Positions 1 through 45,784 of a stretch of 64,000 nucleotides of DNA are shown here, piece by piece. The translations under genes and the position numbers were made by a program. Position 1 is the stretch's first letter; every line of letters starts with the position of its first letter. Source of the stretch: Vermamoeba vermiformis (Eukaryota); the NCBI GenBank assembly GCA_045837725.1, contig JBEWZL010000184.1, positions 248,001 to 312,000 of the forward strand, in the 5' to 3' direction. The notes under the pieces are model-generated. The model saw only the letters and a list, made by a program, of their open reading frames with translations, was not told the origin of the DNA and ran no database searches.

Positions 1-1
1 A

Positions 2-520
2 GATATTTCACAGAAATTCATCAAGATCGCCACTGACAACCACGCCATTAACTGTCAAATGACCGTTGACAGCAAGGAACGTGACACGTTGTGGCAAGCC
101 AGACACGGCGCTTACTGGGCCTCTGCTTCTTTGTGCCGTGGCTGCAAGTTGTACGTGACTGACGTGTGCGTGCCCATCAGCAGACTGTCCGAGTGCGTTG
201 TTGAGACTGACGATGACTTCAAGACCTCTCATTTGAAGGGTCCGTTATTGGGCCACGTTGGTGACGGCAACTTCCACTTGATGATCCCAATCGACCCCAA
301 GAATCCGAGGGACTTGCCTGAGGCTCAACGACTCAACGAACGACTTGTCAAACGTGCTATTAGTATGGAAGGTACTTCGACTGGTGAGCACGGTGTTGGT
401 TTGGGCAAGATTCCATGGGTCTTGTTGGAGCGCGGTGAAATTGCCGTGGAATTGATGCGCAACATCAAGAAGTCGTTTGATCCGAAAGGAATTATGAACC
501 CTGGCAAGATTTTTGAATAG
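2..520 (+). CDS. FAD-linked oxidase, D-lactate dehydrogenase (cytochrome)-like; C-terminal part, truncated by the window edge
   Basis: Motifs TDVCVP, GHVGDGNFH, GEHGVGLGK and FDPKGIMNPGK match the FAD-oxidase C-terminal domain of the LDHD/DLD1 family. Confidence 0.9.
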   Translation, partial: DISQKFIKIATDNHAINCQMTVDSKERDTLWQARHGAYWASASLCRGCKLYVTDVCVPISRLSECVVETDDDFKTSHLKGPLLGHVGDGNFHLMIPIDPKNPRDLPEAQRLNERLVKRAISMEGTSTGEHGVGLGKIPWVLLERGEIAVELMRNIKKSFDPKGIMNPGKIFE

Positions 521-700
521 GCACGTAGTTTAATTTTGATAAATGTAAATTTTTCCTTTGCGTATTCGGTTGCAGATATTTGCAGTGAGTCATTTTTTGC
601 AAAACAAACAAACAGCGGACTTATTAGACCCGCACACGGTCAGATAATACACAACACGTAAGTTATAGCAAAGCGACAGAATTCTCAGTTTGTGCACGAT

Positions 701-2350
701 ATGACACAGCAACTCGACCTAGATCAGAGTTCTTTTTTTAACATTTACGAACTGGTCGGAACGATTATTGGTATTTTAGCAGAGCAAAAAGAAGGCAAAG
801 CTATTTTTAATATCGGAATGGTATCTAAAAAGTAAGTGTTATTTTCGAGGTCGCCAATGGCTGGTTTAAAGCGATAATTTGCAGGCATAATGAGTACGTT
901 CACTCTTTAAAAATGTGGAAGTGCTTCCACAATCAAGCGTTGGCATACGACAAGAATGACCGGATCAGTACTCCTTTCGTCAGATCAATAATTAATCACA
1001 CCAACGATCTTCGATTTGCATTAGATATTTACTCTAACAATACCATAAAGCAATATAATGCACTTCAAAAACTGAACCAGCTAATTCGGGATTCAGAAAG
1101 CATACGAGATTTAGTCTCCCGATCAGAGCTGCTTCCTTACTTAGTGCGGCTGCTGGAATCTGCAAATGACAATAGAATATTACAAGTACGTAGAGCTGTG
1201 CTTGCAGTAATACTTGCGTTACTCACATTCCTGCAGCGCGAAGTGATCATCATTTTTACGAACATAGCTGCCGGCACAATGGAGCACCAGCAGAGTGTAA
1301 TTGATGCCGGAGCTTTTAAACCACTGCTACAACTGTTTAAAGTAGATAACATTGATATACAAGGAGAGTGTGCTTTGGCACTGAGCAACACAATACACCG
1401 CAATGTGAAGGTTGAAAGGTTTGTTTCCATCATACTGTTTCACTAACGATTCCTTAGTTGAGCAACGAGCTGTTCGAATCAGGAGTACTTGACGTGATTC
1501 ATCATATTCTAGAATTCAGTAAGAACAACTTTGCTGCCCTAAACTGCATGTTTCTTTGTGAAAATCTTGGCAAAGTTAGCCCCCGCATGTTGAACCTGCT
1601 GCTGCCTACCATTCCTTTCGTAGTGAATACACTCGTAGCACCTCATTACGAGAAAAGGACTAGAGACCAAGCTTGTTCGTTTCTTCGTGAGCTAATTCTC
1701 ATAAACTTAACACTACCTTTTGAGCGCCTTCAACAAACGAAGAATGCTTTACAGACCATCGTTAACTTGATGACGTAAGTAAATAGCAGCCAGTGGTAGT
1801 GCAGATGAATTTGTTACCCAAAGTGATTATCTTATTTAGCACTCAACTCTCGGCATTGGTTGTTCTAAAGGAGATAGTTTTCAAGGGCTCCACTATGCAC
1901 ATTCAAGAAATTTTGAGCGCAGGATTCATGAATCAGGCAAAAAACATACTTAGGAGTCAATTCATCAACGTTGGCTATGTGCGATCGGTACTTTGGATCC
2001 TGTCAGTCATGATGGAGCGGAATTCGGTGTTTGTACTGGAGTTCATCAAAGACGGAGAGATATTCTTGCTGGCTAAACAATACGTTTATGACTACGACGA
2101 CACGGAAGCGCAAAAGGAAGCAATGTGGGTCTTTGCTAAGGCCTTGTACGTTGACCGCAGCCCAAGCACGTACAATTACTTCTTAAACATTGGTGTTGTT
2201 ACTCTTTTATACCACGCACTTGTTGAACACCGTGGTAACGGGAGATGCGACCTGGATCTGATTGAAACCTTGCTGCAAGCGTTGCAAGAGATGCTAAAAT
2301 ATGAGCGGGCAAAAGTTGATAGAAGTCGCGGCTATTCAACGGCTCGATAG
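701..2350 (+). CDS. F-box-like N-terminus plus armadillo (importin-alpha-like) repeats; possibly disrupted
   Basis: Spliced N-terminus ..IFNIGMVSK|HNEYVHSLKMWK. ARM-like segments FTNIAAGTMEHQQSVIDAGA and EAQKEAMWVFAKA. Frame continuity near 1775-1790 and 2320-2360 could not be resolved. Confidence 0.65.
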
Positions 2351-2494
2351 ATTTTCAATTGCCACTCTTGCATTTAGCATCTGGAGACTACTTCAATAAA
2401 CGAACCGATTTGATCTTAAATTTATTCAGCGATGTCAAAATTTTGTTTAGCTATTTAGCTATTAAGCTACAATTTAAACAACTGAGTGCCACAA

Positions 2495-5400
2495 ATGCTG
2501 CAAGCAGTAAGCATCAAGAACTACTTGTCGTTCAAGGAGCAGAAAAGGCTCCAAGTTCGGGATGGCAAACTGGTCGTTGTCGGGGAAGGTTAGTCGCTTG
2601 GCAAAAAATTGGATTAATAATAATTTTGAATAATATTCGTGTAATCGGAATACGAGTGCTATACTATTGGTTGGAATTCAGATCAACTATAAAAAAATTC
2701 TCTTTCAGCAATATTCGTGATTAATTTCATTTCAATAGTAAATATGATTAATACGGCTATAGTAATATATTTAAAATTGTTATTTCGAATTTGATCATTT
2801 CACTGAACGGTTTTTTTTACGAACAGACGGAGCGGGCAAAACAAATTTATTTAGAGCCGTTAAATTTGCTTTGCAATCGCAACCTATTCGATGGAACGGT
2901 GAGGCCATGTGCCCTTGGGATTGCAATGAAGAACTCGATGTCTCCATCGATGTCGACATGATCCCAGAAGACGTCGTAAGTTTCATCCTTAATATCGATT
3001 ACTATGAAGTATTAATTTTCCTTTTTAGGCAATATTACGAGATTTTATCACGTTCAAGTTATTTTCAAAGTTAATTGATTATTGCAAAGAAGACACTGGA
3101 ACGTACATGGATCAATTTGAAGCGTTCTTAAAGGTACCGCTTTTTCCGCCTTATTTTCATAATCTTAACTATACCATATTAGGACAATGACGTGTTTAAT
3201 CAATTAAGGCTCGGATATCGTAGTGAGGCCTTTAACAAGCAATATTTACAGCCGTTTTGTGAAACAGGCGTCAAAGGCCGCTATCAACTGATCTCGTTCA
3301 GACACAACACTCAAATTGATTTTTTTGCGCAGTGTTTGCCTGAAGACGTCTATAATAAGATAGATAAGGATGATTTAGACAAGCCACTCAATTTCTCAGG
3401 GTTCTACGGCAACAGTTATTTCACGGCTAAATGGGAACAACGAGCACTCAAGATGCAAGAAATAACAACTGGCATGCGTCAAATCTCGTTCAGTTTGCTC
3501 ATCAGAAAAATGGTTGCCACGCGATTTGTCTTCTTTTCTGACGTAAGCCCGAGACTTGGTCCCGTGAAATTTCGTCTGACAGTACTTTGCAGCACATAGA
3601 TTCGTTCTTGGCTGGCTCAGAGTCACTCGTCAAAGCGATAGACTATGCAGGGAGAAGCTCTTGTTCGAAAAGAAAATGAGTCGGACACGACAAGGCCGCT
3701 TGGAGTTCAAGACGATTCAAGAGCACATGAAGCACTTGGCCAATATCGTGCCTGATGTTGGTCTCACGGACACGACATCACGCCTCTCGGTGCGTTTTGG
3801 CGAGTCTGACACTAGCACACTGTTGCCTCGCGTATTTTTCACCGAGGTCGATGGTCACACTTTTGACGCAGGCACTGCCTCGAGTGGTGTCGCACGCTTG
3901 CTGACAATACTGACTATGGTAAGGCTCGGCACCTACATATAGTAGTACGTGATCTCGTACTGACTATTAAACTAGCTTCATACCACGGACTACTTGACAT
4001 GCTTCTTGGACGAGCCACTTGAAACTCTTCATCCCGCGCTAAGACATCACATGCGCGATCATTTCTTGACGGTCAAAAATAAGGGTAAGCTTAGCTATAT
4101 GATTAAAACGGTTGCTAATGGCCTCTTTAGCTATTATCATGATCACCCATGCTGGCGAAATGATTGTGCCGCCATTGTTGGACCACACTTACAGACTCAG
4201 AACGCAATTCAAAAATAATCAAGGCGCGTCAACTGAAGTGTACGATATCAAACAGGTCTTAAGGGCACGCAAAGATATCAAAATGGAGTTGATTAATTTG
4301 TCCGTGGAGTCCAGCTTCCGAGAAATATTTTTCACGCGGTCAGTTATTTTCGTCGAAGGTGTCAACGACAAACGAGTGCTGGACAGTCTCAGCTTTGTCA
4401 TTCGTCACAAAAAGAGCGTCAAACTGCACGACATCAAGCACATTCATTGGTCTGTCATTGCGATCGGCGGCAAAGGCCGGTTCCCCGCTGCAGTTCATTT
4501 AGCCAAGAGCATGGGCCTCGAGTGGGTCTGCATCATGGACTTGGACGCGCTGCTCCCCGACGACGAGCACATTCGCGCGCAGTTGAAAGAGAACGGCTCC
4601 AAGGCCAAGCAAATTGATGTGACATTCCACGAGTACAAAGACACGTTGCATCAAGTCTTGCAGGACCTGAACAAGATTGCCAACAAGAAAGGCTTGGCAG
4701 TGCCTCAGAACCCAAGTCCATTGCCTAGTCCTAGCCGGACTGTCGCAACATCTGTAGGCTCCCCGCCAGACCTTTTGCCCGCCCCTCCTCTCAGCCCTGC
4801 CAGCGAGAGTCTTGCTAGCGAAACACCCGTCACATCTCATCCCTCTGTCACAGGTGCCAACAACAACAATGTCACGCAACAACAAGCCAATGCTACACCT
4901 ACTATCACCATCTCATCGACTCCAACTGTCGTGCCTCAAGTGACAGGTGAAGACAGCGACTTGACCAAAGTGATCGAGTACATTAAAGACATCAAAGCAC
5001 GCGTGGACATTTCACTCAAGACTGTTGAAAAGGGTAAGTGACACGTGTCATTAAATCCAAATCGTTATTGTTGGCTAATCTTCAAGGACAGATCGTCACA
5101 AACTGGAGGCTCAAGGTGACTTGGAACGATGGAACTTGGCGAGCACACATCAATCAGCAGCTTATTTAGTGATTAAACAGCACTTCTTGGGTCCTAATGA
5201 GGACTACTTTAACACCAAAAATCACCACTTGGATGCGTTTTTGAATTACTGCAGCGAACGACGCGTCTTTTCATGGCGTAATGGCGCACTAGGTACATAT
5301 CGTAATCGTGATTATAGGTCTCATTATATTAATATATGCAAATTAGAATCATTGTTCCAGATCACGTTCCCGGATTTCACCAAGAGCCGATGGTCAAAGT

Positions 5401-5537
5401 TATTTTACGCAGAGCTCGTTGAATTGGTACGAAGACTCGTTGAAGATGACAAAAACAAGGAGGTGACGCGATTATTGAACTTTTTGAAGCGCTGGAATTG
5501 TTTGGAAATGAGTTCTGGTCCGAAACCAGATCTCTAA
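2495..5537 (+). CDS. OLD-family ATP-dependent nuclease (ABC-type ATPase + TOPRIM), multi-exon
   Basis: Exon 1 (2495-2588) spliced to 2827 gives MLQAVSIKNYLSF..VVVGEDGAGKTNLFRA (Walker A). Also signature-like ASSG, Walker B/D-loop CFLDEPLETLHP, H-loop IMITH, and TOPRIM IFVEGVND..GGK..MDLD. Confidence 0.88.
5039..5050. promoter_or_regulatory. TGACACGTGTCA palindrome (G-box/E-box core), intronic copy
   Basis: Perfect 12-bp palindrome, also present at 10434, 28057 and 48337. Confidence 0.45.
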
Positions 5538-5619
5538 ACTAGGACGAGTTTATATTAAATAATCATAATATGCTACAGCTTTGTGTTTCTTGTACATATA
5601 TCACATAGTATTAAAGCGC

Positions 5620-6524
5620 TTATTTAGCTTTTAATAACTCTTCTTTGTTAGTCTCGACATGTTTTTTCAAATGTTTGGCCATGTCGTACATGCTGCCCAC
5701 AGCACCAGCATTAACTGCCTTGGTCGGCACCCAGCCTCCAATATCAAAGGCATAAATGCACGTGATTTTGCATTGATTAATAAACTCTCCTTTGTCATTT
5801 TTCAGTTCTTCAATCATCATGCCACAAGCGTAATTTTTTCCACGAACAGTGCCCTGTGATAAAAGTTATTAATTTGATTATAATAGTGTTGATTATAGTA
5901 TTGTACCTTGTGTTGTGTAACGCCTTTAATTTCTGTGAATTGTGACACTGACTCGTATTTACGCTCCTTGTCGTCGAACACTCTTCTGACAGCCCTATTG
6001 ACCATACAATAAGCCACAATACTTCCAATCATATATATAATTACTCACAGTGTGTCGAGGAACTCTCGTGAGCTAATTATTCCGCCGGCCGCTGGTTCCG
6101 TTACGACGCGCATGACCTTCAAATTGTCGTTCAGATTCGCAATATATTCAATACTTTTCATCGTCTTGTCCCATATTTTACGACGAGGAAGGTCTATAAC
6201 ACTATGTTAGATATCAATATGATGCGTATAATAATTTTTCTTACTTTCATAGCAGCTGAGGACGAATTCCGCAGTGTCATTAATTATTACTTCGGATTTG
6301 AACATTGGAGGTACACCTTTTTCATCGGATTTGCGCTTGAACACTAAGATTCCGTGCTATACAAATGTAAGTTAATTAGCCGGTGTAATTGCGAAACAAC
6401 AATTTTTACGGATCGTAAAAATAAAATAACCGAATGGATATTGTGGCTTTTGAGCGGATGTAGAAAATTGGAGTAGTTACTGATGCTTAAGTACAATAAA
6501 ATAATTGCCGAATTTTTACCTCAT
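5620..6524 (-). CDS. START (StAR-related lipid transfer) domain protein
   Basis: Segments EPAAGGIISSREFLD and ITCIYAFDIGGWVPTKAVN are typical of START domains; several short introns. Confidence 0.8.
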
Positions 6525-24745: not shown

Positions 24746-27700
24746 CTATTTCTTATTATTAGTATTATTGTTGTTATGCATGTTAGGACTCGTAGCACTC
24801 TTACTCGGCTTACTCGATTTAATTTTGTCCTTGTCTTTCACGTTGCCTAAACTCGATTGCTTATGCATCTTTTTGATTTCTTTTTTGTCTTTTTTATGCG
24901 CCTTGTCATCGTGTTCATTATCATCAGCTTTTTTGGCCTCCTTAGTCTCGTCATTATTCTGATTATGACCTTCTTTAGGGTGCGCTAAATTTCGTTTGCT
25001 CGTGCTCGAAAACGAGTGTTTTAACGACTTGTAGAACGATTTCAAAAAGTTTTTGGACTGTTGTCGCTGGATCTGGGCTTTCTTGGCGTGTTCTTCATTC
25101 GTTTCTTCCAATTCTTTTTGCTTAGTATTGCTTACGACGATATTACTCATGTCGCTAAATGACCGCTTTCGTCTTGGCGTCGGAGAATTTTCACTGTCAG
25201 TGCCATTTTCTCCGCTGGTCGCCAAATGATTGGACTCTTCAATCTCTTCTACAGTCGGCTTATTTTGGATAATATCGTCAGTAGTCTTGCTCTTCTTTCG
25301 TTGCAGTAACGGTTTCTCATTGTTATTGTTGTTCACGGATCCTTTGCCGATCTTCGTGACTGATACAGACTTGCTATAATGAGCTCGACCAGGGCTATTA
25401 CCATAAAAGGTAAGTGTCACGTGACTTAATAATCTCCATTTTTAACTTACCTCTTGTCGCTTGCTCGGTCGGTTGAGGGTGACACGCTTTTGACGGAGAG
25501 TGAAATCTTTGTTGGTTCATTCTCTTTGTTAGTATCGACTTGATCTTCTTTTTTCTCGTTTGGCTCTTTCACAATATGGTCTTCTAATCGTGTAACTTTT
25601 TCGGGTTTTTGTTCGGAGCTCTTTGGGCTTTCTAGGGCATGTTCTTCTTTCACAATATGGTCTTCTAGGCGTGAAATGTTTGCACCAGTGGCAGTCTCAG
25701 TATTCTTTTCATCTTGCCTTGTCTCAACGACCTCGCTAGCCTTTGGCTCAGGTTGACCAACCACAGCTGGTTCAACTGCTGCTGTGACACCTTGCTCTTC
25801 TTTGTGAGGGCTCGTGTTGCCAGAGTTCGGACTCGTATTGTTATTGCTGTTCGATTGCTGCGGTGTCTCGTGCCCGTCTCTCACGAACGAGACTGAGCCC
25901 TCGAGTGACTGCGATTCGCTGATTTCATTGAACGAGTTAGTGCGAGACACAACACGATCAAGCTCGCCTGTTCTAACTGATAATCGCATAGGACTGATAA
26001 TACAAAATATACATTAGTTTAATTGATTCATCGTCGATCATTTACACTTTGTCTGGGTACCTTAGCATGTCTCGAGAAGATTTCTGTCGGGTCGGTTCGG
26101 GACTGCTATTTTTGCTTGAGTTACTTGTGAAGCTGTCCACGAGACTAGCCACGGATACTTCCGTCTCAATCCTGCGCACTGGTGACTCAGGCCGGGGCTT
26201 AGTCACTGCACTTTGATTCGCAGCGGCGTTGAATGACGCGACACGTGACAGCACGGGTGAAGACGTTTGGTCGCCCGATTGGCGCTTGGGACTTGTAGCG
26301 GCAATAACGCGTTGGAAGGCTGAAGGCATGCTGCCTGAGCTCGAGTCCGTGCTCGGGACACGTTGGTGCTCTACTTTTTTGGGCCCAGCAGGAGCTTGCT
26401 TTGTGCCTGCTTTTGGCGGTGGACCATGTTTGACACCTGTCTTCGAAGGCGCGGTGCCTGGCTTGAACCCGGCTTTAGGCGGTTGTCCCTTTGCCGAGCC
26501 AATCTTCACGCCACCAGGGTTCTTAGCAACAGGAGCAACAACTTTCGTGGCTCCAGGAGGCGGCGTTGTCACTTGAATGGCCTCAGTGGCTGGCTCTGGC
26601 GTGGGTGTTGGAGTCGGTGTTTGCGCAGGTTTTGTCTCGTCTTTCTCGGGGATGACAGGCACCATAGCACCACTGCGAGGCCGTGACTTTTTAGTAGCTG
26701 GGATTGGCAATGGTGGGGCAGCTGCGTTTAGAATGCCCTTGGCGTTGGCTACAAGCAGACCTTGCGGCGATGATGCTGCACGTGACACAACGGGACTGTG
26801 AGTGACACTGCCGTTGTTGTGCGAGGCTGGTTTGATGGCACTGCCCGTTGAAGTTGTAGAGCCCAGTGAGCCTGTGCGACGAATGTGACGATTGCCGAAC
26901 TCGAGCCTTGACACTTCTGACGACGAGGACGAGTCAGAGGCCTCGGCATCGGATCCTGCATCGGAGTTGTGGTCCAATGCGTGCTCACGAATCTCGTCTT
27001 CTTCTTTGCTAGCGGCTGTTTCGGACACTTCGAGCACGTCAGGCAATGACGGCTGAATAACGGTAGGTTTAATGGCCTTCATCGATGATGACTTGCGTAG
27101 CACTCGTGCAGCGGGCTAAAAATAAATACATTAGTATATATTTAAGGTATATTAATAGGACCGGTATACCTTGTCTTCTTGAGCCATCGTCTTTGATTTT
27201 TTAAGTCCTGCTCGTGATTTTCTTCGAAGTTTTTCAATGACTTTCTGCCTACTTTCAGTCGTTGTAGTGTTGTTGGCTTTTTGCGTGGCAGTCGGAATTT
27301 CAACAGGCTTAGTTGTCGTGTTCGTATTGGTTTGGACTTCGGTCTTAGTGGCATCAGTGTCTTTAGAACTCTTGCTCGGTTGCGATACTTTGACCTTAAA
27401 TAACGTCGATCTATTGTTCTCGTCATCTCTGCCTTCTTTTAACGGGTATTCCGTGCGAGATCTGCGTTGAAATTTCAACTGCTTCTTTCGTGCAAAATTG
27501 TACTTCTGTTGGATAATCGAATTACTACGGAACTTCTTCATATTTTCTTCGAGATTGGCGTTTTTGTTGGAATTTCGCGTCGTCTTTTGTTGTTTCATTT
27601 TTGTCATCAAACTATTGATCGTTGCTTCGTTCAACTGTAGAGCGACTTTTTCATGAACCGCATCGAATCCCCTATACAACGCATTATTAGCCATATATAG

Positions 27701-29463
27701 TAGGTCCCGGGTACTCAACATTAAACCACTATTGGGCTTAAAAATATATAATAGAAAAGTACTTACGTGGCGTCAACTATGGGTCTCAAGCTGGTCGGAG
27801 ATTCCAGGAGTCGAGGCGACGAAGGATTAGCGCCGTGTGATTGGACAGGAGTCAATTGAATTCTCTTGCGTTCTCCCTGCAACAACTCTTTCTCCATCTC
27901 CTTGGCTTTGTGGATCAGCTTGTTCAACTCCCAGATGTGCTTTGACGGTGACTCCGTGAACTCGAGGTCCCTCTATAATATCATAGTTAGAATGCTACTT
28001 GCCTATTATAGGGAAAAGAAATGTCAAATAGATAGTGCTTGACAGTGGCGCACATTTGACACGTGTCAAACTGCGTGTCAACGCCGATAACAAATAAAAT
28101 AATAATTATTCAATGAAAGGGTGAATTATACAGCTATTATAATATTATGCTCACCTGAGTTTCATCCAATTGATCGCGGATCTCGCCCACAAGATCTTTG
28201 GGCAAGTTTGGAGTGGGCAGCTTATTATTAGCACGATGTATTTGATCGATTCTAATGGGATTAGTCTTCTTAACTTTTTCTTCGGGCGATAATTTGCTAA
28301 GATCATCGAGGTCCTTATTTTTGTCTTTCTCCTTATCCTTGTCTTTGGACGACTTTTTGTTACCAGATCTCGATCTGGTTGTCGTAGGCAAATTCGTCAA
28401 ACTATTCTGAGCACTGCCGCTGCCTCCTCTATAAGATCTCTCGAGCTCTTTGTCGCTATTTTTAATAGCAATAACGGCACTAGTGTTGAGAGTCGTGGTC
28501 GCACCACTTTTGCTAAGTTTGGTCGTTGTATCGGTGACGGATGTGCTCATCGAGGTGTCAGAACTGTTCGTAGGACCAGTTATAATAGTAACACTATGAT
28601 CTTTGGCGTATTTTTTGAACGAGAAAATCAACGCTGTCATGAGCTGCGCGTTGCCATCGACAATGTCTACAAAATTTAAATATTAGTAATCAAATATTAG
28701 AATATTAAAGTTTTTATAATTTTGTAGCCTTAAGCTATCCAGAAGTATAGAAGATCCGCCTAAAAATAAAATTTCAATTATTTCTTACCTTCAGGCTCAC
28801 AGCCAGCTGTCTTGATATTAAAATGTTCCAAGCATCTAAATGCGCTTCGTACATTCTCCAGCTGCTCGTCACGAGATTTTGGAAACGGCTGATCACCGTA
28901 CCGAACGGGAGATCTTGTGATTCGGTTAAAATTTAGTTATTCGGCGTTGATATACGCGAGCAATAATATGAATTATAATATGACCATAGCTCAGATACAA
29001 TATATTAAAGGATAAAATGATGGAGAACTTACTTTTTAAATTTGAGTCCTAGCGAATCTACATTCTTGCCGGTGATTATCTGCGAAATATTTATTAATTG
29101 AGCGCATCTTTTAAATGTTGGATAATAAAACGAAGCTCTTCGTTTAAAGTTGAATTTTACGTGCAAAGAAAATATTCAGAATAAATCTATCGCGTTACAC
29201 TTACCTCTATTAAATTAAGCAAAATAACTCCGTCTCGAAGATCTCTTGATAGATCATTCACTACAAAGCGTGAGTTAAAATCTGATCCTTTCATTTTGAA
29301 ATTGCAACAAGAATTCGATATGACACGGCCAAATAACGGCATCAAATTAATAATGATTCTTACCGACGAGACTTCGCTGATTTAATAGTGAATTTAGCCA
29401 AGAAATATAGCCCGGAGCTTTATTTGTTTCCCAAGATCGAGGACTCAAAACAGTCTGAGCCAT
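24746..29463 (-). CDS. Calponin-homology domain protein with long Ser/Thr/Lys/Pro-rich disordered tail
   Basis: VVNDLSRDLRDGVILLNLIE..QLENVRSAFRCL..DIVDGNAQLMTALIFSF is a CH domain; the remainder is low complexity. Confidence 0.8.
28055..28070. promoter_or_regulatory. TTTGACACGTGTCAAA 16-bp palindrome, intronic
   Basis: Extended copy of the recurrent motif, flanked by additional TGACA/TGTCA half-sites. Confidence 0.45.
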
Positions 29464-35081: not shown

Positions 35082-38000
35082 ATGTAAATGCATCACCAGT
35101 TTCTAACCTTTACTGACACTTCTATCATTAGGATGCAGCTCAATAAGGTACAGTTGAGCTCCGTTCTTTTAATTTGTATATTATGTATCGTACCAGTGCA
35201 GCCATTTAACTGCGCGACAGGTGAGTAAACCGCAACCACCACTTATTCCTGACTAATACCAAATCAGACACGTATTCTGGGGGACCCTATTCCTTCCATT
35301 CTATTGACAGCACCGTCCTCTCGCTTATCCCTACGCTGTTTCCTGAAAGCACGACTCCTAACGCAGCACTTGTAGATCCAAATGTTGACGTTGTGGTGAC
35401 GTTCACTTCAGTACGTATCGGTTAATATTGTTAGTATAATCATGCATCCAGTCTCATTAATTTCGTCATTACAGAAAGCTACGATGAATATAACGTACCT
35501 CTACGAAGGAGCAGGTTATGTGAACCAAGTCGGGTAATTAACTAACATTGCGGCACATACGATTCAATCAAGTAAATTGACACTTGACCTCGGTATCAGG
35601 TACTACCTCGTCAACCCTACGACCTTGGCGGCATATAACAAGACAATCATCTTCCCTGCGGTTCGTAACATTTCGAAGGGCGGTTGTAATACACCGGGAG
35701 ACACGGTCTCAATCGGCCCATTCGCCGCAGGTATGAAACTGCGCTCGCAGCAAATGCTGATCATCATTTAATCGGTTCTTGCAGGCACCATATTGGGCTT
35801 CTTCGTCAATTCAGACGGCTACGAGGTCAATCCTTACTACACGTTCTGGAGTTACAACACTAGCAAGATTGTCAATCCGGACGGCTACAAACACACTGCA
35901 TGGGCTCGTGTCAATGGTGTAGTCATGATGGGCTTTGAGGACTTGTATGGTCTCGGTGACAAGGTATGTAACGCGAACACACTATTCCGGATGTGAGTCA
36001 AATTAATCATGTTTATTTTAGGACTATAATGATGCTATGATTACTTGGGCCGTTGATGGTAACTACACCGCGGCAGTCCCTGATTACTCCGGTGGTTACG
36101 TCCAAACTTGCGAGAGTACATCCATTTTCAGCTATGTTCAATACAACTGTTTGCAATACGCCGTGCTTCAAGGTCTTACCTCTACTTCTTGCGTGTCATA
36201 CATTGGCGTTCCTAGTGGCTGGTCTATTGCCGACAATACTGTTGCTTCCCGCACTGCCCTCAAAACTTACGCTTCGAGTTTGTTCACCAGCGGAGTTACA
36301 TGCATTCTCTTCTCTGACGGAACTGGCTTAGACGTCTCTGGCAATACCTGCAGTGCCACTATCTCTACTTACAACTCAACTTGCTACGCTGTTGATTGCA
36401 GCTACCGTCTCCTGTTGGTCGGATCTGCTATTGCTGGCTGCACATCCACAACCAGCACGTGCACAGCCTCAGTTGCTTCATCTATCTTGTACCAGACTCC
36501 AACTACCAAGTCCTCTACCGATAGACTCTATCCCTCCGAGTATGCTACCTACTTCAATCCGACTGCTACTTCCACCCCATTGAAAGTGAACTTCACTTTG
36601 ACTAACAAGAGCCCTCTTGTTGACGTCATGATCGTGCTCGACTTGTTAGGCATGACTAGCAACACTGTCGATCAAGTCAAGAACTACGCCAAGACCTTCT
36701 TCAACTCGCTTACCAATGCTGGATACAGCGCTCAAGTCGGCTTAGCCACCTTCACTACCTCAGGTTCTACTCATAGTGAGAGCTACTACTCTTATCTCAC
36801 GTCGTCATCTTCGACTCTTTCATCCAACATCAACAGTTTGACTTGGACATCCACATCCACTTCGACTAGCCCGTCCCTTAGTCTTCAAGCTATCGCTTCT
36901 GTAATGCAAAACTCAAACGTTGGTTGGAGAACAGGTGCCTTCAGCTCCGTTATGATCATCACTTCTCAATCGTACAGCACTTATCAAGACTTGTCTTCCC
37001 TCAGTATTAGCACCGGTGTCGTGCCTCTGTTCCTCGTCTTGAACACTAACAACGACAAGACTGCCTACAATTCCTACTCATCTTTGGCATCTGCTCTGCC
37101 TTTGTCATATGCCAGCTTCATTTCTTCGCCGACTGCTTGGTACTCGACCGGCCCAACCTTGGTTGCATCCATGGTTACGTCAGTGGTTGCTCGTCCTTTA
37201 AGTGACTCTTACGGCTTCTTGACTGCCACCGCCTCATCTACCTTGAGCGTCGGAAGCTCAACCGTACTCTACTTCACCGCTACATACCCTGCTAGCTTGA
37301 CTGCCTCTTCTGTCTCATGGCCTGTCACAGCTACTGTCCGATTGTTTGGCTACGCGAGCCCAATCCTTATCATCTCAGCCAACACTCCTCCTACCTTGAC
37401 CTCGATCGGCACAGTCTCCGTAGCTGAGAACTCGAACACTACCATTACTTTGAAGGCCTCTGATGCTGAAGGCAACACCCTCTCGATCTTGTTCACGTCT
37501 GTCACGCACGGTTCATTGTACACGACCAGCGGCGCTGCTGTCTCACTCAACACTGCTTACAGCTCCTTCTCAGTCGTCTACGTTCCTACTACCAACTACT
37601 ACGGCGCTGCTAGCATCGGGTACAGTGTGACTGATGGATGTGCAACGACTTCTGGCACTGTGACTCTCAACGTGACCTTCGTCAACCAACCGCCTGTCGC
37701 CAAAGACTTCACTTTCACAATCTCAGAGAATGAAGCCACTTTGTCAAAGCAACTTATTAACTTCACGAACTACATCTCTGACGTTGAGGATGCCACTTCG
37801 AAGTTGACCGTGAAGATCTTGACCATTCCTACTTCCTTGGGCACTTTGCAATACACGTCTGACGGCAGCACTTACAAGAGCGTCTCTTCTCTTACCACCT
37901 TGCCTGGCTTGATCGTCCGCTTCATACCGACATCTTATCAATACGGCACTGTGACTTTTACCTACTCCGTGACTGACACGAATGGAGCTACTTCCAACAC

Positions 38001-40851
38001 GGCCACTGTTACTGTCATTATCAATTTCTCCAACACTCCCCCAACGTCAGCTAGCTTAACCGTGACTACTGCTCAAGACACAGCTGTTGCGATCGACAAG
38101 CTCTCGTACTACGATCCTGACGCTGGTCAAACGATCAAGTTGTACTTCGCTTCATTGCCCACTGGTACTTTGAACTCTGTCAGCACGAGCTCTGCTGTGT
38201 CATTGTCAACAGCCTTGACCTACACCGCTAGCTCTTCGTGGAACTTGACTTACACGCCCCCTGCTGGTGCTTATTCTGCTAATGGCGTCGTGTACACCAC
38301 GTTCACGTTTGTCGTTAACGATGGCTACGCTAACTCGACGATTTACACTGTGTCGATCTACGTGACCAAAGCTGTTGTCGTGAACACTGCTCCGACAGCT
38401 AAGGACTTCACATTCACAATTAACGAAGACGAGACCAGCACCACCGCCCAGACCATCTCTTTCAAGCCCTACATTAACGACACTGAAACTCCGAACAACT
38501 TGACCGTAGCTTTGTCATCGCTCCCTGACTCATCAAAGGGCTCCGTTCTCAACTCTGACGGAACTTCTTTGGTCGTTGGCACCACGGCCATTTCAAGCGC
38601 CGTTCGCTTCGTTCCTGCACAACACCAGTACGGCACAACAACATTTAAGTACACCGTCACTGATCCTAGCGGATTATCCGCAACTGCCACTGTCACGGTG
38701 ATTATCACTTTCATCAATTACCCACCGACTTCAGAGAACGTGACGATCACGATGAATGAGATCAGTCAACAGAACGCGGCTTTGGCTGCTCCTGTCGCGA
38801 TTGCTGGCGCTGACATTGAGAGTACTTCACTGAGCTTGGTCATCGTTACTCTGCCTTCAAAGGGTCTGCTGATCAATCCCAGTACCGGTAACTACATCAC
38901 TGCAGTACCTTACACACTTAGCGGTGGCTTGTCGTGGACTGTCAACTTCTTGCCTGCTCAATATGGCTACGGAACTCCTTACGACACGTTTACTTACAAG
39001 GTGTACGATGGTTCGAGCTACAGTGGCATCTACTACGCAACTATCAATGTTAATTACGTGAACCAACCTCCTACTGGCCAATCTTACTCGGGCACCACCA
39101 AAGAAAACACGCCATTGAAGGTCACGTTATCCGCATCAGATCCCGATGATGACACTTCGACATTGGACACGCTCTTGCTCTCGTTCTCTTCGACTACTGC
39201 CGGCACTTTCTACACCGATTCTTCGTTGACCACAACGATCTCAGCTAACACTCAACTCACTGGCACTACCTTCTACTTTGTTCCCAGCGACGGTGTTTAT
39301 AGCGTGCCAGCTACATCTCCTGTCGTCTCATTCACGTTCAAGATTGTTGATCCTCATGGCTTGACCTCCACATCAACTTACACTGGTGTCATCTACGTGA
39401 CCTTTGTTGATAAGCCTCCTTACTATGAAGGCGCCTTGAACATCACTGTCTACGAGGAAGCCGTCGCAGCTCTCAGCTTGGCTTCACTCGGACAAGTCAT
39501 CAATAAGAATGATGCACAGACCCCGACCTACACCATCACCATTACTCAGATGATCTCGCGAGGTTACTTGTGGGAATGCACTGACGGCTCTACCTCATGC
39601 ACGCAGTGGAACATTTCAACCACTCCTTACGTCGTCAAGAACACTGGCTACACCTTGTACTTCACCTCGTTGACTGGAGATCACGGAGAATCACCTGACT
39701 ACTACTACGCTACCTTCAAGTTCACCGTCTCAAGCTCTACGACCTCACTCGTGAGCGCTGAATACACGTACACAATCTTCGTTCTGCCCGTCTGGCACCC
39801 ACCAGTGGTTGTCCCCAGAACATTTGCCGCGACTCCTTCTCGTACCTACACTGACGAGAACACACCTTTTGTCTTGGAATGGACTGCCTACAACGTTGAC
39901 AAAGAGTTCGACAATTCGACATTGACTTCAAGAGTGTCAGTGACCTCTGATTACGCGTCCAAGTACTACTACTGCGTTGAGTCCTCCGACAATGACTGCG
40001 TTCAGGGCAACGAGATTACATTGCCCGCAACTATTACGGCCCTCAGACCTGCTTTGTGGCGAATTCTCTTCGTGCCCGAGACCGACACTTATGACACGCT
40101 CAAGTACGCGACTTTCACGTTCCTTGCCACCAACACCGAGACTGCCTTGTCATCTACTGGTGTCAGAGCTATTATGGTCGTTCAACCAATCAACAAGCCT
40201 CCAACTATCACCGCTGGAGACATCACTGTTCAAACACCCGATGACTTGACTATTGGTATCGGAAGTGTCTCCGTTGCTGACCCTGATGCTGGCTCCAAGA
40301 ACGTTTACCTTGAAGTTTCAGTTGTCAGTGACACTACAACCTCAGTATCGCTCTCAGTTTCGACCTACTTCACGCACACTCATTCAGTGGCTCCTCCTTG
40401 CACTCAGACTACCAACCAATCGTTCACTTGCACGGACTCACAATCGAATCTCCGCACTTACCTCGCGTCTCTGTACATCAAGCTTGGCGACAACAGCACG
40501 TCCTCAGTGATGTTGAACATCTACGTGAATGACTTGGGTCACACTGACAAGCTCAACAGAGCCCTCAACGCGACTAAGAACATGACCATCACGATCACCG
40601 ATCAAAGTGCAACCACTTCGAGTAGCCCAACAGTCGATAATGGTGTGCCTATTGGTGTTTCGATTGCTGGTGCCGCAGCATTGGCCGGAGCAGCAGTGTT
40701 GATTTGGCGATTGAAGAACAAAGCTGGCCCTGCTGACGATTACTTCCAGTCTCTCAACTCTGGCTCGAATGATGCAAGCACCAATCCGCTGTATCAAGAG
40801 CGCAATCAGACTGTCCAATCACCGCTCTATCAAGCAAAGAACGTTGTGTAA
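35082..40851 (+). CDS. Sib-like (similar to integrin beta) adhesion protein: DUF4114-like, vWA, tandem cadherin/Big-like repeats, TM, NPxY tail
   Basis: Signal peptide; GFEDLYGLGDKDYND; vWA DVMIVLD..VGWR; repeated N.PP.A..FTY.V.D units; Gly/Ala-rich TM; cytoplasmic NPLY and SPLY. Confidence 0.8.
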
Positions 40852-40915: not shown

Positions 40916-42099
40916 CTAGTCTTCCTCATCTTCTACAGGCTCAGCTCCCCACACCACAACACCGTACATCGCCGGTACTAACTCGTTGAGACGACTTTGC
41001 GTTAGTATGGCGAGCTGCCACGTATTAAGATCTCTCTGGTAATAAGGTTGGCCGGGTGTGCCGGTCCGCTTGCCCATGGGACCTGAAATGGAACCATAGC
41101 CGTACGTAGTTTGTTCCCACTGAGCGAGATCCAATATGTCCAGCCTACAGCCATTCACCTTGCGGTCCCACTCGTCTTCATGAGCTGGCACCAGCGAATA
41201 AAAGTCCAGCGATAAATTGTCTTTTCGTGCAACAAGTTCATTTCTCGGCTCCATCAGAAAGATTACAACGGCCGGGTCATCGCGCATAAGTTCAGCTCGC
41301 CGTTCAGCCCATTCTCTGGCTGCGTTCCAATCATCACCAACGTAGAATCCGAGACGATAGCAGGGTATGAAGTCCGTCGAGCGACAAGTTGATAAACGAA
41401 TGTTGTCAATGATACTAAGCGCGCTGGACCACGTAGTGCCGTGATACAATAACCCCTTGCCTTGCTCTTCAGCGTAAGACCGCAAGTCTTTGAGTGTTAG
41501 TTGTAGCTGCGACTCCATCCCTTCTATTGTCCTAGGTGCATTATACACGCACAAGTCTTCTCGAGTTGAAGAATTAACGTTGTTGGAGGCTTCGCGAATT
41601 GAGATCCACGCGCCTGGCTCAGTCGAACAACGAGTTGCTTGCAAAATCCAAAGGTTCTTGAATAAACCCTCAACCTCCTGAAGCAATGTAGTATGGGCGC
41701 CCATCTTTTGAACGGCGTTGACTATTCGTTGGGCTGCATCATGAGTGAAGCAGAAGTGTTCTTCAAGCAGCTCCAGCTCATCGGACCGCGATGAAGGCAC
41801 TGATGCCAATTTCATCTCCGCAAAGTCGAGAATCGCCTCGTTGTCTGGCGTAACATCTCTTACGAGTGCAAACTTATTCATTACCCAATCTGCGACCTTT
41901 AAAGCATTATTAAAAAATATTTTATTAAATGCAAACAAATTTACCGAAAAAATGTACGCTTACTTTACCAATATCAATTCCGCCCCGTTCGAAGCGAGCT
42001 AGTATTTCGTGAGCCCAGTTTAGCTCATCTTTTGCAGGAGTATCCTATTCAACAGGTCAATCGTTCGAACGAAATTGATTAGCTAAGTAGGCGTACCAT
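40916..42099 (-). CDS. DUF3990-like ADP-ribosyltransferase-fold protein, paralog 1
   Basis: LYHGT, TDF..GFYVG, SISGPM and TWQLAI motifs; three exons, the first being ATG only. Confidence 0.7.
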
Positions 42100-44101: not shown

Positions 44102-45784
44102 TTAGTTGGATGAAGCTAATAATCTGAAATTATAGAACCACTCAATGTAAAGAAAATCAACGACGTCAGAAATTGATCGCTGCGTCGGATCCGCAATTGT
44201 CGTTTTGACTCTATGATGCCAAGACTCAATGATACTATGAAAGTTCTTATGAACGTCTTGGAACGCCACTGCCCATTCGCTCGGTGGATGTTGAGTCATC
44301 CAAGTGTCTCTGAAGTAGCGCATGAACCGTGCCAAATCCTTGCCGTACTTCTCGTTAATTAATTTCAACTGCATCTCGAACAGTTCTTTCGTAGGCGCTA
44401 GAGCAAGATGCCTCATAGTCTCAAGTACCAGATCAGCCTTAACGGATCCACCGTTCAATTTCTCGCGTATCTCTTCGATGAAGAATGTAGCACTTGATAT
44501 CAACTGTGTCTTATTCTCTTTGATCTTATTGTTGAATTTTTCAGCGCAAGATTTTCTCAGAGACTCGTCGTGAGGCATGATTATCGTTGCAGGAACTTTG
44601 TTGCATCGGTCGAAAACTTCATTAAGAAACATTGAATATGACTCGCTTGTCGGACTCTTTGTGATGTAGAATGCTACAGGAATTCCAACGCCCTTGAAAT
44701 TGATCATCAATGTCGCTAAGGTCAGATCCGATCCGCTATCCGACTGCACTCGAAAAGAGAATCTATCGAGGTATATGACATCTCCATATGTATTCATTGC
44801 ATATTGGATATGTTCAGCGTCGAAAAATATCATGCCCAAATAAGGCAAGACCTTCAATTTTTGCACGAAAGACTGCTGTTCCGACGAATGGAGGTGGGTC
44901 TCAATAATCTTCTTAATATCTGTAACGAATAATTTCATATTGCCACCGACACCTGCTATTGCTTCAGCTGATAATAACGCGTCAAAAATACTTTGCTAAA
45001 GTTTTTATTAGATCAAAACTTACGTGTCTTAAGTAGATCCAGTACTGCTTTTGCAGAGATAGGCTCGCTTGAATATATCTATAAAACAGTTAGAATATAC
45101 TCTAATTGTGCAATATTAGAATTAATACCTTTTTAAGCTTCGAAGGTGCAGACGTTGGTGGATCACGATCCATGGATTCAGACTCTTTGTCATTGTCGGA
45201 GTCCTCATTTTCTTTCATACTATCCTCACTATCGCTGGATATACTATAATCGTTTTCTGGAGGATGATTATGCTCCCCTACGAGCTCTCGGTCAACTATT
45301 TTGTGTTTGGCGGATTTGCTCGCAGATGTGACTCTCATTTTTGCCTTGCAGCCCTTCTTAGCATTTATACATGCGCAATAAACTCTATATCGACCATCTT
45401 GCATGATATTAGTGCCGTTATTTAGCCACTTGAACCTCGACCAATGCGGATTTGAATCTGCGAATGTGATGCAAATTAGACAAATTATTTCGAATATTAC
45501 TATATAATAATCAATTATTATTTTAATTTACCTGCTGCTTCTAGATCTGGCTCTGGCTCTTCGGAAATTTCGCTTGACTTAGACTCGTCAACGACCTCAT
45601 TATCATTGGAATATGCCTCATCGCCCTCCATAATATTATGCTCAGTATCCTCATGTTCAACCTCCATTTGGGTCGGTTGAGTGAGCGGATCTGCATAATC
45701 ATCGTATGCATCCGATCCGTCGAAGGCACTTATATTTGTAGTACTGAAGAAATTAAAATACTCTGAATGTGAATTGTCCTCCAT
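44102..45784 (-). CDS. MULE transposase-derived protein (WRKY/FLYWCH-like Zn finger + MULE domain), probably domesticated
   Basis: YCAC..GCKAKM..GEHNH Zn finger; GDVIYLD, GIPVAFYI, F..YF..TW and IIESWH MULE segments. It has introns, and no terminal inverted repeats were seen. Confidence 0.8.

Follow-up and report, generated by a model that had tools for sequence, protein, structure and literature searches.

The locus examined here raises the question of whether a eukaryotic nuclear genome holds a nuclease of the OLD family and, if so, whether the copy found there can still be made into an enzyme. It lies in a 64,000-nucleotide stretch of the Vermamoeba vermiformis contig JBEWZL010000184.1 (positions 248,001 to 312,000; hereafter the window, whose own numbering is used throughout). 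In this stretch an OLD-like gene on the plus strand runs, by exon translation, from an ATG at 2495 to a stop codon at 5535-5537. A preliminary description made from the sequence alone had reported an intron-containing ATPase-TOPRIM nuclease at these positions. The gene is real, it is spliced and all of its motifs are present, but it is not intact. Its frame is broken into two open reading frames (ORFs), ORF-A (2495-3679, 264 codons when spliced) and ORF-B (3676-5537, 548 codons from the ATG at 3676). The locus is almost certainly a genuine eukaryotic member of the OLD family. The reading that we favor, with moderate confidence, is that of a conserved eukaryotic stand-alone OLD-like nuclease, of which the window holds a recently disabled (null or decaying) allele.

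The family assignment was first evident in exon 7 (4131-5033). This exon matched the OLD-like_TOPRIM family of Pfam (PF20469; E 7.6e-11, 42.8 bits against a cut-off of 23.2), and in PADLOC the "Old" model came out on top (E 3.2e-13), ahead of the best GajA model (1.8e-7). An exhaustive HMMER search with exon 7 against 1.84 billion representative proteins returned 66 matches at E<=0.001. One of these, P0001, is the same exon from a near-identical strain; another, P0002, shares 60% identity with it by phmmer and 47% by BLASTP, and many of the others are about 740 residues long. Ten matches were scanned with Pfam, and AAA_15/AAA_21 and OLD-TOPRIM domains occurred together in seven of them, namely, P0004 to P0009 (about 715-760 residues) and P0018 (1778 residues). 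The shorter P0003 also had both domains, while in P0002 only TOPRIM was recognized. P0037 was rejected as a relative, being an unrelated DUF11 protein according to Pfam.

Comparison with solved structures led to the same family. A profile built from 23 relatives among the HMMER matches (A1) placed the Class 1 OLD protein of Thermus scotoductus (6P74) first, with an E value of 1.4e-32. GajA followed at about 1e-18, and then the retron Eco8 OLD protein, PtuA and AriA, with Rad50 and SMC heads appearing only at 1e-6 to 1e-7. The profile aligned in order with ORF-A, ORF-B and the product of an ortholog, L001, which is described below. When exon 7 was modeled with AlphaFold over its first 196 residues, the mean predicted local distance difference test (pLDDT) score was 81.8. 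With this model, Foldseek returned 6P74 as the sole match at E<=0.001 (E 3.3e-4, probability 1.00) and GajA chains next; the TM-score of 0.44 by query is modest because the fragment covers two domains. Searches of the ESM Atlas returned the same family. A search of the PDB with the single exon 7 sequence gave no matches at E<=1, and a word-index search for longer proteins holding exon 7 or exon 4 found none, which is weak evidence. Taken together, PF20469, the PADLOC Old model, the profile matches to 6P74 and to both ORFs, and the Foldseek result agree on an OLD-family ATPase-TOPRIM protein.

The chance that the locus is instead a vertically inherited SMC/Rad50-type ATPase, or bacterial contamination, is close to nil. 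Besides the Rad50 and SMC heads far down the structure list, the former alternative can draw on a weak SMC_N match to the exon with the Walker A motif (E 0.27). Against it, a TOPRIM domain of the OLD type is present, and 6P74 and GajA head both the sequence-profile and the fold searches. The best structural match is therefore an OLD nuclease and not an SMC or Rad50 protein. Contamination is ruled out by eight spliced introns and by eukaryotic neighboring genes, as the preliminary description had argued.

Every motif named in that description (Walker A and B, H-loop, VEGVND, GGK, DLD and W..GALE) was found on translation. Walker A (GEDGAGKT, 2582-2843) lies in ORF-A, which represents the N-terminal ABC-ATPase lobe and matches A1 positions 3-107 (E 3.2e-15). 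ORF-B matches A1 positions 418-651 (E 1.4e-45) and also 666-733. It contains a signature-like motif (TASSG, 3874-3903), Walker B and the D-loop with its His (LDEPLETLHP, 4000-4035), the H-loop (ITH, within 4133-4156), the TOPRIM domain, a linker of 85 residues and, at the C-terminus, a helical region in which the ..ALE motif lies. TASSG, LDEPLETLHP and ITH align to the invariant A1 columns G426, L447, D448, E449, P450, H455, T481 and H482. The linker (4703-4957, in exon 7) is of low complexity, rich in P, S, T, N and Q, and absent in prokaryotic relatives. In the alignment of exon 7 with L001, all 15 gap columns fall in it or just before it (4745-4885).

A TOPRIM domain is defined by an invariant Glu, a conserved Gly and a DxD motif, according to PMC6755086, which also gives the OLD class definitions and the catalytic residues. 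The catalytic core in the window (4343-4552, within the PF20469 match) consists of the Glu and Asp of VEGVND (4343-4372), GGK (4460-4480) and DLD as the DxD motif (4532-4552). Its residues E75, G76, D79, D136 and D138 are invariant across the 33 rows of an alignment (A2) that includes the window. For the second metal site, OLD proteins are expected to have an acidic residue at Glu+4 and a T/S-x-E motif contributed by the helical domain. At Glu+4 the window protein has the Asp of VEGVND. The W..GALE motif is assembled across intron 8 (5293-5346). Its Glu corresponds to the invariant E685 of A1 and to the S-L-E of 6P74, in a C-terminal profile match that is weak (5.0 bits), and in this S-x-E motif the window protein has Ala in place of Ser/Thr. 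Two further deviations were noted: Walker A has Asp where Asn (N33) is invariant in the 23 A1 relatives, and Ala stands at the invariant S483 that follows ITH. The conserved basic residue that OLD proteins require for processive cleavage is K562 in the B. pseudomallei OLD protein (PMC6755086), and the corresponding residue in T. scotoductus OLD is given as R487 in a preprint (10.64898/2026.08.18.745644).

The OLD-like gene is transcribed and spliced, at a low level. All eight introns are of the GT..AG type, and each can be seen as a joint in spliced contigs from runs X3 and X8. These two runs carry two other organism labels and come from two studies, and the RNA nature of their contigs is a software guess. 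The X3 contigs show all eight joints; the X8 contig shows the last four only. In two declared RNA-seq runs under the source-species label (X21 and X23), raw reads were sparse, with 18 and 21 reads placed out of about 13 million records each, at 90-99% likeness. The spliced X3 contigs span 2475-4599 and 4721-5631 on the plus strand, so that the transcribed region extends over 2475-5631. Since the X3 contig begins at 2475, where adapter sequence abuts it, the 5' end of the mRNA is probably near that position; its 3' end is at or past 5631. The ATG at 2495 is the first AUG on the mRNA.

Intron 1 (2589-2826, 238 nucleotides [nt]) splits Walker A, as had been predicted, and its joint was found in the X3 contig. 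Joints in X3 also define introns 2 (2976-3028, 53 nt), 3 (3134-3182, 49 nt) and 4 (3543-3592, 50 nt). For intron 4 there are, in addition, three raw RNA-seq reads (one from X21 and two from X23); its joint is free of positional ambiguity, and a branch-point-like CTGAC lies inside it at 3576-3580. Introns 5 (3919-3975, 57 nt), 6 (4085-4130, 46 nt), 7 (5034-5091, 58 nt) and 8 (5293-5346, 54 nt) are supported by joints in both X3 and X8. The relative P0002 is uninterrupted across the site of intron 6 and continuous at intron 8, which splits the GAL|E motif.

The ortholog L001 came from a scan of metagenome contigs in which 1 of 78 pattern matches was confirmed. Its protein is 93% identical to that of the window over the first 196 residues of exon 7, and its spliced coding sequence forms a single ORF of 701 codons that reaches the contig end. 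Exons of the two loci are 77-84% identical and introns 44-62%. Position and GT..AG ends are kept at all seven comparable introns, that is, introns 1 to 7, the first of which measures 215 nt in L001. For the part that corresponds to ORF-A (255 codons), the proportion of nonsynonymous differences (pN) was 0.080 and that of synonymous differences (pS) 0.803 (pN/pS 0.10), with 31, 13 and 129 differences at the first, second and third codon positions. For the part that corresponds to ORF-B (441 codons), pN was 0.055 and pS 0.661. As pN is far below pS, both halves were under long-term purifying selection between the two lineages, with a pN/pS of about 0.1, to judge from this sequence comparison.

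The same comparison locates the damage in the window copy. Read across the observed splice junction (3542|3593), the Walker A frame terminates at a TGA (3677-3679) after eight out-of-frame codons. The signature motif and everything 3' of it sit in the -1 frame. This frame is open from the junction of exons 4 and 5 on. It has its first ATG at 3676, where start and ORF-A stop share bases in the sequence ATGA (3676-3679). By pairwise alignment and frame comparison, L001 carries four additional bases between window positions 3651 and 3652 in exon 5, reading ...DYAGVEKLLFEKKMSRT... where the window reads ...DYAGRSSCSKRK-stop. The window therefore has a 4-nt deletion relative to its ortholog, which shifts the frame by -1. 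The statement that the motifs all appear intact is refuted by these observations. A single polypeptide with both ATPase and TOPRIM, a feature of OLD proteins, is encoded by L001 but not by the window. In-frame splicing, for which the preliminary description had looked to RNA-seq, was not supported: the eight introns are spliced, but the resulting mRNA is frameshifted.

The X3 contig covers 3593-3917 with no gaps, and the organism from which it derives thus has the same deletion. We consider the 4-nt frameshifting deletion very probably real in the window copy. Because it frameshifts the spliced mRNA, this copy yields no full-length protein by ordinary translation and, as it stands, is rather likely to be non-functional.

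It might be proposed that the gene is in truth intact, in that the deletion is an assembly error or is confined to a single allele and the full enzyme is made from the other allele or from a paralogue resembling P0002. We regard this as unlikely. In its favor, P0002 exists as a relative at the identities given above. Against it, the deletion recurs in X3, which belongs to an independent study with another organism label, and no second OLD-like copy was found in the 64-kb window.

Repair at the RNA level would be another way out. Use of the AG at 3581-3582 as acceptor would give an intron of 40 nt (3543-3582) and add 10 nt to the exon. This would offset the deletion, so that the frame would run from the ATG at 2495 to the stop at 5537 with about 23 residues replaced. 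Every joint seen (in one X3 contig and three raw reads) uses 3592 instead, and the AG at 3581-3582 stands directly 3' of the branch-point-like CTGAC. Furthermore, 40 nt is shorter than the other seven short introns (46-58 nt), and the replaced segment would lose residues that are conserved in L001. Such a rescue is very unlikely.

Some observations nevertheless weigh against a disabled allele. One concerns X8, where the alignment of contig 4 (organism C) starts precisely at 3652, the contig having a single base without a match in front of it. A contig break at this very site resembles an assembly graph at a polymorphic indel, and organism C may hold an undeleted allele, which would favor the intact gene discussed above. 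A second is the ATGA overlap, through which translation of ORF-B could be coupled to termination of ORF-A. The third is the pattern of variation among the window, X3 and X8. Among the exonic differences listed, 37 of 38 are synonymous (24 more differences lie beyond the list), and within ORF-B the figure is 36 of 37 (binomial p 8e-16 against the expectation for transitions). If these synonymous differences postdate the deletion, ORF-B is still selected and the split gene is working.

The sole nonsynonymous difference among the close relatives is a Leu-to-Phe difference at 4196 in exon 7. Phe is found there in P0001, P0067, L001 and P0002, and the Leu of the window is therefore the derived state.

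On these grounds one could suppose that ORF-A and ORF-B are both translated from one mRNA, by termination-reinitiation at the AUGA or by a -1 slip, and that the products form an active enzyme. Frame B is open from the exon 4/5 junction, and the deletion is common to the window and the transcript contig of organism B (X3). Rad50/SMC-type ABC heads can assemble when their N and C halves are supplied separately. Reinitiation is, however, unlikely in a eukaryote behind an upstream ORF of 264 codons and 16 AUGs located 5' of the ORF-B AUG. A slip finds no canonical slippery heptamer (X XXY YYZ), none being read in the 85-nt overlap at 3593-3677. RNA folding over the 111 nt past the ORF-A stop was not significant either (z -1.64; 12 of 200 shuffles fold as well). 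L001 and the relatives examined in full (the 23 A1 rows and the Pfam-scanned matches) are all single polypeptides.

The age of the synonymous differences also matters for this scheme. Between X3 and the window, 2 of 1053 nt differ in the 5' half (deletion included) and 17 of 782 nt in the 3' half (Fisher p 5e-5). Such uneven divergence points to recombination, to gene conversion or to a contig that is chimeric, and the deletion may have arisen after the synonymous differences. For this reason, the synonymous excess was not taken to prove function after the frameshift. Overall, translation of both ORFs into an active enzyme is improbable. Slightly less probable still is the claim that the frameshifted gene has kept working as an OLD-type nuclease made of two or frameshift-fused polypeptides, with the synonymous excess reflecting selection after the split. 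A working split gene is less likely than a recently disabled allele.

The reading of a conserved gene with a recently disabled copy can be put as follows. The locus is a genuine eukaryotic nuclear gene for an OLD-family protein that resembles Class 1 and apparently stands alone. In this protein an ABC-type ATPase head is followed by a helical insert, a TOPRIM nuclease domain and, at the C-terminus, a helical region that would provide a metal-binding Glu. By analogy with OLD and GajA enzymes of known structure, the protein, when intact, would dimerize via its ATPase and insert regions, and its TOPRIM site would cleave DNA by two-metal catalysis under the control of ATP. The lineage has kept the gene under purifying selection, and the gene has gained eight spliceosomal introns. 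With the deletion in exon 5, ordinary translation would give only the 264-residue fragment with Walker A, the 548-codon remainder being left behind the upstream AUGs. The ORF-A stop lies upstream of four exon junctions, and a premature stop in this position would expose the mRNA to nonsense-mediated decay, with which the low read depth is consistent.

Among known systems, the closest is the Class 1 OLD family (6P74; phage P2 Old). The window gene shares with it the order of elements, in which ABC ATPase motifs are followed by the TOPRIM Glu, Gly and DxD and then by a putative helical x-L-E metal ligand. Like Class 1 genes, it appears to stand alone, and the best solved match of both A1 and the exon 7 model, as well as the top PADLOC model, belong to this class. 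In contrast, the window gene is eukaryotic, has eight introns and is a frameshifted copy. Its protein, if read through, would measure about 815 residues versus 528 in the 6P74 chain, and it differs further by the 85-residue low-complexity linker, by Asp for the Walker A Asn and by Ala for the Ser of S-x-E.

Gabija GajA (Class 2, with a GajB helicase) has the same ATPase-TOPRIM architecture and forms the second-best group in the profile and fold searches, and many PADLOC GajA models match the window weakly. These models nevertheless rank below the Old model. No UvrD-like gene and no helicase domain was found among the 20 window ORFs scanned with Pfam, which were long ORFs only; adjacency, moreover, means little in a eukaryote. 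Within this scope, the earlier view of a stand-alone gene with no GajB-like partner next to it was supported. PARIS (AriA/AriB) resembles the two ORFs of the window in having an OLD-related ATPase and a TOPRIM protein as two polypeptides. In PARIS, the division falls between a whole ATPase and a DUF4435-type TOPRIM, whereas the break in the window lies inside the ATPase, comes from a 4-nt deletion absent in L001, and precedes a TOPRIM domain that matches PF20469. AriA models match prokaryotic relatives but not the window exons, and PARIS was rejected as an identification.

OLD-like genes have been reported in many aquatic eukaryotes in a bioRxiv preprint of 19 Aug 2026 (10.64898/2026.08.18.745644), the only work of direct relevance found in full-text literature searches. 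The taxa given there are SAR, Filasterea, Chytridiomycota, Placozoa, Cnidaria, bivalves, Rotifera, Nemertea, Hemichordata and Cephalochordata. The proteins described there measure 577-844 residues, have conserved motifs, lack a GajB partner and vary in intron number, and an earlier note of OLD transfers to Capsaspora and Crassostrea (oysters) is cited. The window gene agrees with these genes in combining ATPase and TOPRIM, in its conserved motifs and in the lack of GajB, and some of them also have introns and transcripts. It differs in its eight introns, compared with a maximum of five (Capsaspora) mentioned in the preprint. No frameshifted copy is reported there, the words "pseudogene" and "frameshift" each occurring zero times in its text. 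The window gene is thus an addition to a recently described kind.

For opisthokonts, the preprint argues for ancient archaeal inheritance of the OLD-like genes. We scanned species-representative prokaryote genomes with A1 and confirmed 32 of at least 591 pattern matches; among these, the only full-length ones were in a Nitrosopumilus metagenome-assembled genome (MAG) and a Heimdallarchaeota MAG. In viral contigs, 25 of at least 584 were confirmed. A maximum-likelihood tree was calculated under LG+G4 from 85 rows and 279 columns aligned to A1 with hmmalign, after five long or gappy rows had been dropped. It was rooted at the midpoint for drawing only, its sampling follows A1 patterns and most of its rows carry no taxon labels. 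The window, L001 and P0002 group together (100/99) inside a set of nine rows (99/92) with six unnamed proteins. This set is sister, with moderate support (85/97), to the Heimdallarchaeota sequence together with P0064 and three Treponema sequences. The window clade thus stands beside a Heimdallarchaeota MAG, a position resembling the Asgard affinity reported in the preprint (compared by its description). This placement suggests agreement with the opisthokont OLD-Asgard link of the preprint, and it does not separate ancient inheritance from transfer. As for an antiviral role of the OLD-like gene, we only infer it.

The genes around the locus are ordinary eukaryotic genes. They include a FAD-linked oxidase C-terminal domain (2-517), an ARM-repeat gene (829-2350), a START-domain gene on the minus strand (from 5620), an F-box/Kelch gene and a PH-domain gene. 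In L001, a fumarate-reductase-like flavoprotein and a FAD-linked (D-lactate dehydrogenase-like) oxidase were recognized upstream of the OLD-like gene by eye from ORF translations (1-3518), and the first 519 nt of the window match the end of this oxidase with 85.5% identity. The ARM-repeat gene, which in the window lies between the FAD-linked oxidase and the OLD-like gene (520-2493), is absent in L001, where only about 96 nt (3519-3614) separate the two. Either one lineage gained this segment by insertion or the other lost it by deletion.

Farther along the window, an uninterrupted ORF of 1609 codons on the plus strand (36022-40851) contains VWA, bacterial cadherin-like and Big_9 domains. The stretch has a higher GC content (0.48-0.50) and a GC skew of -0.14 to -0.25, and the ORF may be another bacterial-type gene in a eukaryotic contig. 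Below-threshold matches were obtained on the minus strand for a MULE transposase domain (44102-44995, E 8.4e-4) and for DUF3990 (40916-41959, E 2.7e-4). Between 24001 and 28000, the AT skew is -0.20 to -0.22 and the GC content locally reaches 0.49 over two long minus-strand ORFs (26042-27115 and 27152-27772), the former of which has no Pfam match. Rfam and tRNA scans of the window gave no matches. Small shares of the sequence were found in water, aquifer and sludge metagenome runs, which were not used as evidence of habitat.

For genome annotation, the result means that the locus should be flagged as frameshifted and not entered as an intact protein of more than 800 residues. It opens no new field, eukaryotic OLD-like genes having been reported before. 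It does provide a further well-documented case of a prokaryote-type defense nuclease that has been fully built into a eukaryotic genome. Intron positions conserved in two lineages, spliced transcripts and a pN/pS of about 0.1 are a stronger sign of long-term use than lists of presence and absence, and the freshly broken copy shows that such genes are also lost, that is, that they undergo turnover.

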